64,000 bases of DNA from a virus. Positions 6,807 through 8,272 of this stretch are shown here, piece after piece. Where the stretch lies: the IMG/VR virus record IMGVR_UViG_3300020190_005317; one strand, written 5' to 3'. Position numbers and translations under genes: made by a program. Each line of letters begins with the position of its first letter. Positions within the stretch are counted from its first letter, which is position 1. A model generated the notes under the pieces. The model was not told the origin of the DNA. It did no database searches and saw only the letters and a list, made by a program, of their open reading frames with translations.

Positions 6807-7094
6807 ATGTTAGAACAAGATTTAAATATATTAGACAAAATCTTTAAAGATTTGAATTTCACCACAACTTATAGAGAAATCTTGTTATCAAGTTTGGTTA
6901 ACAACCTTGAGAGATCGGGAATGAAAAATATTACTCGTAACTTTATCTACGTATCTTTATCCCCTGAAGAGGGTAAGAAAACTGCTACTGAGATAGCGGA
7001 TTATTGGGAGGAGATGAAACAAACCGGATCATACAAAACCAACCTTCAAAAAACTTTAGAAAATTCACCAACCTTTTCAAAGTATCTGAAATAA
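6807..7094 (+). CDS. Hypothetical protein
   Basis: 95-aa ORF. Confidence 0.35.
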   Translation: MLEQDLNILDKIFKDLNFTTTYREILLSSLVNNLERSGMKNITRNFIYVSLSPEEGKKTATEIADYWEEMKQTGSYKTNLQKTLENSPTFSKYLK

Positions 7095-7124
7095 AAAACC
7101 CCAACCGTAAAAACGGTCAGGGTT
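7093..7124 (-). terminator. Rho-independent terminator on the minus strand
   Basis: Revcomp gives CCCTGACCG-ttttta-CGGTTGGGG followed by TTTTTT. The 9-bp stem has two G-U wobbles that become C-A mismatches on the plus strand, so it is minus-strand specific. It closes the ORF-poor block. Confidence 0.55.
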
Positions 7125-8060
7125 AGGCAAAAAACTCTGAGAATACAAGTCTTGACAAGAGTCTTTAGGAGGATTATTTGGTTCCCTCTGTTTCCACCGT
7201 CTTTTGAACGGTAACTCTCAGTCACGGTCAATTAGATTAACCAATCCTTAAGTTGTCTGCAACTCTCTCCTTACTCATCACTCTTCGACCCTGCCGAGCC
7301 AATTCATCCTTGCGGGATTAGAGAACTTTCGTGAAAATCGTGTCGGGCTTGGGACCCTTCACGGCCGTGAACATCTCACGACTATGTAGTGACCTGTCAC
7401 ACACAACTGACGAGCACTTTTCCTTGATTTAATTTAATGTTTTGGACATTGATTAGACCAAAGTTGGTTTTACGGATTAGGAAGGTAGTGGCCCGTCTGA
7501 AGCCAAGTCATCTTTTGGATGACACGATACTAAACTACCCTCTGAAGTGTCCCCACTTCCATATTTCGAGTCAACTTCATGACTAACCTCTTGGTAGAGA
7601 TAAAGTCAAGGTCTCATCAGCACCACCTGTTATGAAACTTACCTTGCCGGTGTTTAAGCCAACTCTAACATTGAACTACGCAATTGTGACAGTGGATACT
7701 ATCATTTCTTACATAAGTTCTACAGGTTACTCTTGTTGGTCTTCCGACCTCAACCAAACGACCCGAATCGCTTGGTCACCTCACCAACTTCCCTACAGTG
7801 TTACCCTCGGTACTAGAGGTGGTGTGATATCCTGCTTGCCTACTCAAGCTCCCTTTCGGAAACCGCAGACAACCCAAAACCAGGGTTATCCACTTTATAC
7901 TACTTTCGTAGTTTATTTAACGACCATAGGCGGCCAATATCTTGAGTCAAAGAACTTTTTAATTTGGAAGGAAGGGGACTTTTTACGACCCCAACCTTCC
8001 ATTTGTTTCACAAAATTAAAACAGTATTTGGAGACTGTCAAATTTTTTTGAAACTTTTTT
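7125..8060 (-). ncRNA. Candidate large structured noncoding RNA (class not determined; GOLLD/ROOL-like context)
   Basis: About 0.9 kb lacks any credible ORF and is visibly GC-richer than its flanks. The minus-strand terminator lies at its low end and the tRNA-Met gene at its high end. Several GC-rich palindromes are present (TTCACGGCCGTGAA, GTGACctGTCAC, GTCATCttttgGATGAC). The only track ORF here (7632..8051) has atypical T/P/S-rich composition. Confidence 0.35.
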
Positions 8061-8200
8061 TGACTATTTCTGATTTGATTCTAATACCTCCCACTTTAAG
8101 TGAGACAGGTTCAAATTCAGTTTCATCAAAGAACAAATGACTTTCGTCTTTTGTTTTACGAAGATAAGAAGAACTTTTCAATCCATCAAATCTTTTTTTG

Positions 8201-8272
8201 TTGCGAGGGTAGGATTCGAACCTACGACGCCAAGGTTATGAGCCTTGTAAGCTACCTCTGCTTTACCTCGCG
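8201..8272 (-). tRNA. tRNA-Met (anticodon CAU; could be tRNA-Ile2 if lysidinylated)
   Basis: Revcomp CGCGAGG-T-A-AAGC-AGAGGTA-GCTT-A-CAAGG-CTCATAA-CCTTG-GCGTC-GTAGG-TTCGAAT-CCTAC-CCTCGCA-A folds into a clean cloverleaf. The stems are acceptor 7 bp with C1.A72 mispair, D 4 bp, anticodon 5 bp with U33 and A37, and T 5 bp with a TTCGAAT loop. CCA is not encoded. Confidence 0.8.

Follow-up and report, generated by a model that had tools for sequence, protein, structure and literature searches.

The viral DNA recorded in IMG/VR as IMGVR_UViG_3300020190_005317, a stretch of 64,000 nucleotides (nt) referred to here as the window, contains at positions 7095-8523 a non-coding stretch of 1.43 kb, the longest in the window. 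Along its minus strand lie a transfer RNA (tRNA) gene, putative promoter elements, a long structured RNA and an intrinsic terminator (Table 1). The overall best explanation of this block is a phage GOLLD RNA gene transcribed from the minus strand, for which we put the probability at about 0.85. That the RNA itself is GOLLD is virtually certain; the window adds one more member to a known RNA family. GOLLD RNAs are among the largest structured RNAs of bacteria and phages with no known function, and in 2025 were shown to build an RNA-only nanocage larger than the ribosome. One further GOLLD copy is not newsworthy by itself, and the value of this locus lies in its set of homologues, its leader and its tRNA partner.

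The non-coding block and its GOLLD RNA

The non-coding stretch is bounded by the stop codon of an open reading frame (ORF) on the plus strand (6807..7094) and that of a NUDIX hydrolase gene on the minus strand (8524..9048). A sequence-only reading had described it as an ORF-free block, richer in G+C than its flanks, between a terminator working only on the minus strand and a minus-strand tRNA. Scanning of both strands bore out the first point, since no ORF of at least 80 amino acids (aa) occurs in 7095-7631 and the sole sizeable ORF of the block (7632..8051, plus strand, 139 aa, ATG start) is not conserved. A conserved coding frame in homologues, which the same reading had named as evidence against an RNA, does not occur among 41 homologous sequences, in which the longest stop-free stretch shifts in strand, frame and position. 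The G+C content is indeed raised locally, at 0.42-0.45 over about 7150-8050 against 0.28-0.35 in the flanks; relative to the whole window the enrichment is not extreme (GOLLD 0.445, window mean 0.356, z = 1.4). The G+C maximum of the window (0.55-0.56) belongs to its collagen-like fibre genes.

The tRNA at the high end proved to be a tRNA-Met(CAT) at 8272->8200. The terminator at the low end is likewise present, with the G-U pairs and U-run described for it, its stem measuring 12 base pairs (bp) and not 9. It has a free energy of -18.2 kcal/mol (z -5.5) and is strand-specific, since its plus-strand version has an interrupted stem (-13.7) and no U-run; it extends into the stop codon of ORF 6807..7094, which converges on it. 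Just upstream, a conserved 3'-terminal GOLLD hairpin (loop GUAUUCUCA) is followed by six uridines at 7129-7134 on the minus strand, with U-runs in many relatives; this may be a weak first termination point ahead of the strong terminator at 7124-7097.

Searching the entire window with Rfam placed GOLLD (RF02032) at 7542->7134 on the minus strand with 312.8 bits (E = 1.2e-88). The match spans the full model (positions 1-416) and exceeds the gathering score of 150 bits twofold. The model itself represents only the conserved 3' half of GOLLD. For the 5' half, comparison was made with env-38, a GOLLD from a marine metagenome seen by cryo-electron microscopy as a 14-mer nanocage (PDB 9MEE; Kretsch et al., Nature 2025, PMC12286853). 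Window 7936->7137 aligns end to end with env-38 residues 4-813 at 64.5% identity, the 5' domain with residues about 4-415, and the RNA core measures about 805 nt (7938->7134, minus strand) against 833 nt in env-38. The env-38 sequence used is that given by Kretsch et al. (PMC12286853) in Supplementary Table 4, in a text copy of 816 nt rather than 833 (17 nt short) whose residues 250-252 could not be reconciled. The GOLLD alignment in that supplement covers the 3' (Rfam) region only and gives no 5'-domain structure (PMC12286853). Score, two-domain layout of about 800 nt, a closed variable linker and a phage location near a tRNA all agree with membership of the GOLLD family.

No Rfam family besides GOLLD and tRNA exceeded its threshold in the window. 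Within 6900-8700, ROOL, OLE, HEARO, raiA, transfer-messenger RNA (tmRNA), RNase P and group I/II introns gave no match at E ≤ 1, a level at which just three sub-threshold matches appeared, all on the terminator hairpin. The leading guess of the sequence-only reading, a GOLLD-type large phage RNA beside a tRNA, was therefore correct; its other suggestions, ROOL or a new class, are not supported. The covariance-model search that it proposed is the one that returned GOLLD, and the comparative analysis that it also proposed gave strong covariation in both halves among 40 relatives (see below). ROOL (RF03087) is likewise a large ornate phage-associated RNA that occurs near tRNAs and forms an RNA-only cage (PMC12286853), but its sequence and fold are unrelated and it has no match in the window.

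Members of the same Rfam family are carried by cultured phages and prophages (phiCbK, Vibrio T5-like phages, PegLeg, DSS3P8, Streptococcus agalactiae and Lactobacillus brevis), where they also lie among tRNA genes and often tmRNA genes; hosts of such phages are Caulobacter (phiCbK), Mycobacterium (PegLeg) and Roseobacter (DSS3P8). These GOLLDs differ from that of the window in their lower model scores (165 bits in phiCbK against 312.8), in the tRNA that some carry inside the linker, and in the lack, at the loci examined, of the GTTCTTTGA leader described below. The GOLLD of S. agalactiae is without P9, P11a-c and P21b and forms smaller assemblies (PMC12990946).

Covariation and predicted inter-chain contacts

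Relatives were collected by a 16-mer pattern scan of viral contigs followed by an nhmmer screen, which gave about 60 loci with a full-length homologue; a 635-kb uncultured phage (LR745206.1, here L001) was obtained by BLAST. The comparative set comprised 40 non-identical sequences from viral metagenomes, 61-91% identical to the window, and structures were predicted from it by RNAalifold without reference to the Rfam model. For the 5' domain (7945->7543) this yielded 96 consensus pairs, 76 of them with compensatory changes; 96.6% of alignment cells are paired, and the covariation of 0.552 compares with 0.238 for shuffled alignments (0/500) and 0.08-0.13 for slid partners. The 3' domain (7542->7128) gave 91 consensus pairs, 67 with compensatory changes, with 97.3% of cells paired and a covariation of 0.602 against 0.216 shuffled (0/500) and 0.08-0.14 for slid partners. 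The window's own sequence forms 90 of the 96 pairs in the 5' domain and 88 of the 91 in the 3' domain (178/187 together). GOLLD is also the best-conserved DNA of the locus, being 84-91% identical to relatives whose syntenic flanking protein genes are 67-76% identical. Both RNA domains are maintained by compensatory evolution. The locus contributes a well-resolved set of 40 diverse full-length homologues, which supports a 5' domain that Rfam does not model.

Covariation, intact pairs and the highest conservation in the locus together rule out both a protein-coding reading and a decayed relic. Membership of a different or new class (ROOL, OLE, HEARO, intron, tmRNA or RNase P), or descent into a GOLLD relic, would have size and the phage and tRNA context in its favour and nothing more, and retains a negligible probability, because no other family matches at E ≤ 1, the window itself forms 178 of the 187 consensus pairs, and this best-conserved DNA comes with a likely promoter and a terminator. 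A plus-strand protein with incidental RNA-like features can point to the ATG-initiated ORF 7632..8051 (139 aa), whose frame is not kept in 41 homologues and which faces compensatory substitutions across 187 base pairs and an Rfam E-value of 1e-88 on the opposite strand; its chances are equally slight.

By homology to env-38, the RNA would fold into a 5' 'cap' and a 3' 'ring' and multimerise via A-minor contacts and kissing loops. The residues of the inter-chain bridges B1-B10 were taken from Supplementary Table 2 of Kretsch et al. (PMC12286853) and projected onto the window and its relatives, with the env-38 numbering recalibrated from base identities on account of the short text copy. No variation occurs in the adenines that act as A-minor donors in B1, B3, B6 and B10 (window A7906/7905, A7743/7742, A7515/7514 and A7204/7203) or in bridges B2, B5 and B9. 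In B7, where L20 and J13/15 of different chains form a kissing loop, the second pair (C7352-G7422) is paired in 39/39 sequences and covaries (CG 24, UA 9, GC 6). Nine of the ten bridges are thus fully conserved, B4 partly. The window and env-38 are also alike in having both domains at near-equal length downstream of a tRNA-Met, in the nucleotides of B1-B3 and B5-B10, in the self-complementary GC loops L21a and L21b, and in an AU-rich internal linker. These results show that selection acts in nature on the inter-chain contacts of the cage, the covariation in trans at B7 being part of the evidence.

Several features weigh against a cage exactly like that of env-38. B8 is kept but was demanded by the search pattern, so that it is not independent evidence; the BLAST-derived L001 shows a GC-to-CG switch at B8, a switch described for GOLLD (PMC12286853). 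The B4 kissing helix, the sole weakened bridge, retains 3/5 pairs, and L11a is a GGCAA loop on a 3-bp stem where env-38 has a longer GAAA hairpin (GGGG-AAA-CCCC). Because of the weakened B4 and the altered L11a, the stoichiometry could differ from 14, and the presence or absence of peripheral helices is known to alter GOLLD stoichiometry (2026 review, PMC12990946). The env-38 cage has been seen, whereas that of the window is predicted from sequence. Assembly of the window's RNA into a closed multimeric cage is, by homology to env-38, rather likely; the cage would probably be a 14-mer (for the env-38 type, a closed D7 14-mer), although the number of chains is uncertain given the effect of peripheral helices.

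Table 1. Features of the GOLLD locus, of the surrounding window and of related loci.
Feature	Position	Strand	Basis or remark
Intrinsic terminator	7093..7124 (stem-loop 7124->7097, then U6 run)	-	Terminator scan; 12-bp stem with G-U pairs
GOLLD 3' domain ('ring')	7134..7542	-	Rfam RF02032, independent RNAalifold
L21b loop GGCA	7295-7292	-	Within 3' domain
L21a loop CGCAA	7314-7310	-	Within 3' domain
Long-range helix enclosing 3' core	7408-7399 x 7260-7251	-	9/10 pairs covary
Variable linker	7486-7419	-	Closed by helix 7497-7487 x 7418-7409
GOLLD 5' domain ('cap')	7543..7938	-	env-38 alignment, covariation; outside Rfam model
boxA-like motif GTTCTTTGA (M2)	7955-7947	-	9 nt upstream of GOLLD core, 57 nt past -10
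Leader hairpin, boxB-like position (M2)	8001-7965	-	Free energy -21.8 kcal/mol, z -5.35, 0/200 shuffles
Module M2, before GOLLD	-35 TTGACA 8041-8036, 17-nt spacer, -10 TAATTT 8018-8013	-	Conserved position
Module M1, after tRNA	-35 TTGATG 8189-8184, -10 TATCTT 8166-8161, hairpin, GTTCTTTGA 8134-8126	-	Alignment, exact motif
tRNA-Met(CAT), initiator-type	8200..8272	-	ARAGORN and Rfam, 60.1 bits
Module M0, upstream of tRNA	-35 TTGTTA 8409-8404, -10 TATCTT 8387-8382, GATCTTTGA 8333-8325	-	Alignment, one-mismatch motif
SPFH/Band-7 protein	6190-6747	-	
NUDIX hydrolase	8524-9048	-	
PduO-type cobalamin adenosyltransferase	9301-9840	-	
N6/N4 DNA methylase	13167-14036	-	
Three consecutive collagen-like tail-fibre genes (928, 976, 1048 aa)	22387-31242	-	
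2-oxoglutarate (2OG)-Fe(II) oxygenase/glycosyltransferase fusion (920 aa)	34655-37417	-	
Adjacent tRNA-Met in relatives	L033 601-674, L088 7843-7915, L041 5419-5491, L031 1169-1241		
Adjacent tRNA-Met in relatives	L005 8946-9019, L015 5811-5883, L001 3923-3996		
tmRNA near GOLLD	L059 5161-5566, L050 6388-6792, L038 1791-2187, L029 4042-4438		
tmRNA near GOLLD	L022 1279-1675, L008 8397-8798, L003 5499-5896, L094 6509-6896		
tmRNA near GOLLD	L121 1216-1534, L153 675-1077, L154 2362-2783		

The leader and the tRNA-Met gene

When the interval from the NUDIX stop to the 5' end of GOLLD was aligned among syntenic relatives, three tandem copies of one module became apparent on the minus strand (M0, M1 and M2; Table 1). 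Each copy combines a sigma70-type promoter (TTGACn-N16/17-TATCTT) with a small hairpin that shows compensatory changes and with the motif (A/C)GTTCTTTGA. Relatives L005, L015 and L113 have a single module, the counterpart of M1, between tRNA and GOLLD, and the window lineage therefore carries a module duplication; in L088 the counterpart of M0 reads TTGACA-16-TATCTT. All of the relatives compared (38/38), the distant L001 among them, have the motif upstream of GOLLD, with the consensus AAA(A/C)GTTCTTTGAA, and it is kept even where a hairpin-rich insert of 40-93 nt lies between it and the GOLLD core. An equivalent hairpin of different sequence is found in relatives, in most of which TTGACA-N17-TATCTT or TAACTT also precedes the motif, its end lying 26-84 nt away. 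The exact string GTTCTTTGA has three copies in the 64 kb, two of them at the GOLLD locus; the third (52308-52316, plus strand) lies antisense within an ORF and was treated as a chance occurrence. Between M1 and M2, at 8087-8109 on the minus strand, a further small conserved hairpin (CCUGUCUCAC-UUAAA-GUGGGAGG) shows apparent compensatory changes in relatives, for example CCUAU.../...AGUAGGGG in L031.

From this conservation we infer that transcription of GOLLD starts near 8006, at a sigma70-type promoter of its own (8041-8013). That would give a primary transcript of roughly 915 nt, with its end at about 7093. The best hit of the promoter scan near GOLLD, TTGACT-16-TATGGT at 7950..7923, was rejected: its '-10' lies inside the RNA, where 7931-7926 pairs with 7843-7838 and two of the six pairs covary (UA 22/CG 17 and CG 22/GC 13/UA 3/AU 2).

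The motif and the arrangement around it match boxA leaders. In the E. coli rrn operons, boxA (UGCUCUUUA) has a boxB stem-loop before it (PMC2724277), and the boxA of the Taylorella ribosomal RNA (rRNA) spacer (TGTTCTTTAACA) also comes after a boxB stem-loop (PMC2666751). A natural boxA (GTTCTTTAAAA) occurs in an array of clustered regularly interspaced short palindromic repeats (CRISPR) of Legionella Lens, where it raised the pre-CRISPR RNA about ten-fold (PMC7862264), and boxA shields long untranslated CRISPR transcripts from Rho (PMC7665894). Like these leaders, which are served by NusB, NusE, NusA, NusG and SuhB, that of the window has a U-rich motif with a hairpin before it; the motif lies +20 to +75 past a sigma70 promoter, and a long untranslated structured RNA comes after it. 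The tandem modules resemble rrn P1/P2. The layout on the transcribed strand (promoter, hairpin, motif, long untranslated RNA) is thus that of a boxA-type leader. In the manner of rRNA operons and CRISPR arrays, leader hairpin and boxA-like motif would bring in the host's NusB/NusE antitermination complex, and the long untranslated transcript would then evade Rho termination and fold co-transcriptionally. We consider the odds that boxA-mediated antitermination operates here to be about even. Such an architecture would explain how an untranslated RNA of about 900 nt escapes Rho and folds as it is made.

Other observations count against this interpretation. The promoter hexamers of the window are weak (8-9 of 12) and fall below the promoter-scan threshold, and the case for the promoter therefore rests on positional conservation. 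The motif carries G where characterised boxA has A (GTTCTTTGA against GTTCTTTAA) and so ends in GA rather than AA; the boxA comparison is drawn from three organisms. The 1.1 kb upstream of the 3' domain contained no boxA-like motif in phiCbK, in the three Vibrio T5-like phages PG07, VspSw_1 and 70E35.6, in PegLeg or in DSS3P8. The boxA-like leader is clade-specific and not general to GOLLD genes.

An alternative, possible though on the unlikely side, is that motif and hairpin are not an antitermination signal and that read-through from the tRNA promoter yields a tRNA-GOLLD precursor out of which GOLLD is cut; the conserved motif would then be a site of processing, bind a phage factor or belong to the RNA fold. 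The terminator scan found no terminator-like site between tRNA and GOLLD, many phage GOLLDs lie inside tRNA arrays and some have a tRNA in the linker (PMC12990946), the GOLLDs of cultured phages lack the motif, and the invariance of the motif means that covariation cannot probe its pairing. On the other side, most relatives, L025 without a tRNA nearby being one of them, have strong TTGACA-N17-TAnCTT promoters 26-84 nt upstream of the motif, and the hairpin-then-motif order and the sequence fit described boxB/boxA leaders. Against a part in the fold, env-38 transcribed without a leader still forms the cage (PMC12286853), so that the motif is dispensable for folding. An own promoter with a Nus-recruiting leader accordingly remains our preferred account of GOLLD expression. 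The searchable literature, which did not cover the original GOLLD description, yielded no report linking GOLLD to boxA or to an initiator tRNA; a search for the motif string returned primer lists only and did not cover a cross-phyla survey of boxA, so that an earlier mention is possible.

Bacterial initiator tRNAs, such as E. coli tRNA-fMet, are marked by an unpaired 1:72, by A73 and by A11:U24. A further hallmark is a run of three consecutive G-C pairs at 29-31:39-41, of which variants occur in some bacteria. The tRNA-Met of the window, 261 nt upstream of GOLLD, has a C1xA72 mismatch, A73 and A11:U24; in its anticodon stem 30:40 and 31:39 are G-C and 29:41 is A-U (2/3 G-C pairs), as in all adjacent relatives. 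In every one of the eight non-redundant tRNA-Met genes situated 98-360 nt upstream of GOLLD, 1:72 is unpaired or weak, together with A73 and mostly A11:U24, whereas the seven tRNA-Met genes farther off in tRNA arrays all have G1:C72 and C11:G24 and are elongator-like; the adjacent genes are orthologous, so that these counts reflect a few evolutionary events and not fifteen independent ones. Three divergent lineages are represented among the adjacent genes, namely the clades of the window and of L005 and the 635-kb phage L001, and phiCbK and DSS3P8 each have one initiator-like tRNA-Met near GOLLD.

The tRNA has a varied fate among relatives. In the closest relative, L025/L064, both tRNA and spacer are gone and GOLLD is still 84-91% identical. 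In L010 (5769-6011) and L110 (910-1152), corresponding to window 7983-8222, only the 3' third of the tRNA is left. L053 (2394-2467) and L094 (8941-9014) have an ARAGORN call of an unusual 'tRNA-Met' (5' ATAGCAG...) 6-7 nt past the GOLLD 3' end; the call may be spurious or may reflect a tRNA-like element joined to GOLLD. L014 (2005-2096) and L092 (5009-5100) carry, about 130 nt upstream of GOLLD, a 92-nt tRNA-like gene called with a four-base anticodon (ccct); it could be a frameshift-suppressor-like tRNA, an intron-containing tRNA or an artefact.

Possible function and genomic context

Published facts on GOLLD include the cage formed in vitro, raised expression during lysis and proximity to tRNAs (PMC12286853). 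As a working guess of low confidence, GOLLD may take part in the phage takeover of translation, on the grounds that an initiator-type tRNA is its conserved partner and that tRNA and tmRNA genes recur nearby. In eight metagenomic relatives a tmRNA gene is found no more than a few kb from GOLLD, and likewise in phiCbK, PegLeg and DSS3P8, with a permuted gene in phiCbK and DSS3P8; none was found in the window.

A role unrelated to translation, for example as a decoy or container against host defence or as a metabolite store, is doubtful; the tRNA neighbourhood would then be only a shared 'RNA gene island'. Phage RNA genes do commonly cluster, the possible cage cargo listed by Kretsch et al. consists of metabolites and stress proteins (PMC12286853), and the nearest tRNAs in Vibrio T5-like phages are not tRNA-Met. 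It has to be set against this that an initiator-type tRNA lies directly upstream in at least three divergent lineages, that tmRNA genes are adjacent in unrelated phages, and that ribosome binding of GOLLD in pull-downs is cited by Kretsch et al. (PMC12286853).

A more specific form of the translation guess, speculative and improbable in all its parts together, is that in a clade of uncultured, probably large aquatic phages GOLLD is expressed like a mini rRNA operon and paired with an initiator tRNA, its cage acting on translation initiation. Tandem sigma70 promoters, a boxB-like hairpin and boxA would recruit the host Nus complex for antitermination and RNA chaperoning, and the cage would hold or deliver fMet-tRNA or engage 30S subunits. 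If true, this would for the first time offer something concrete and testable about the role of GOLLD; leader and initiator-type tRNA partner could in any case narrow the search for its function.

The window is phage DNA, as indicated by its three collagen-like tail-fibre genes and an SbcC/gp46-like gene; other neighbours are listed in Table 1. Megablast of window 1-25000 found no relatives among cultured phages. A search of 185,579 species-representative genomes for the GOLLD subtype found none, the 17-mer CTCTAATCCCGCAAGGA giving 27 matches, 0 of them GOLLD, where about 70 were expected by chance. The best tblastn matches of the gp46-like protein reach only about 25% identity and belong to uncultured huge phages, and several GOLLD-bearing relatives lie on contigs of 150-320 kb.

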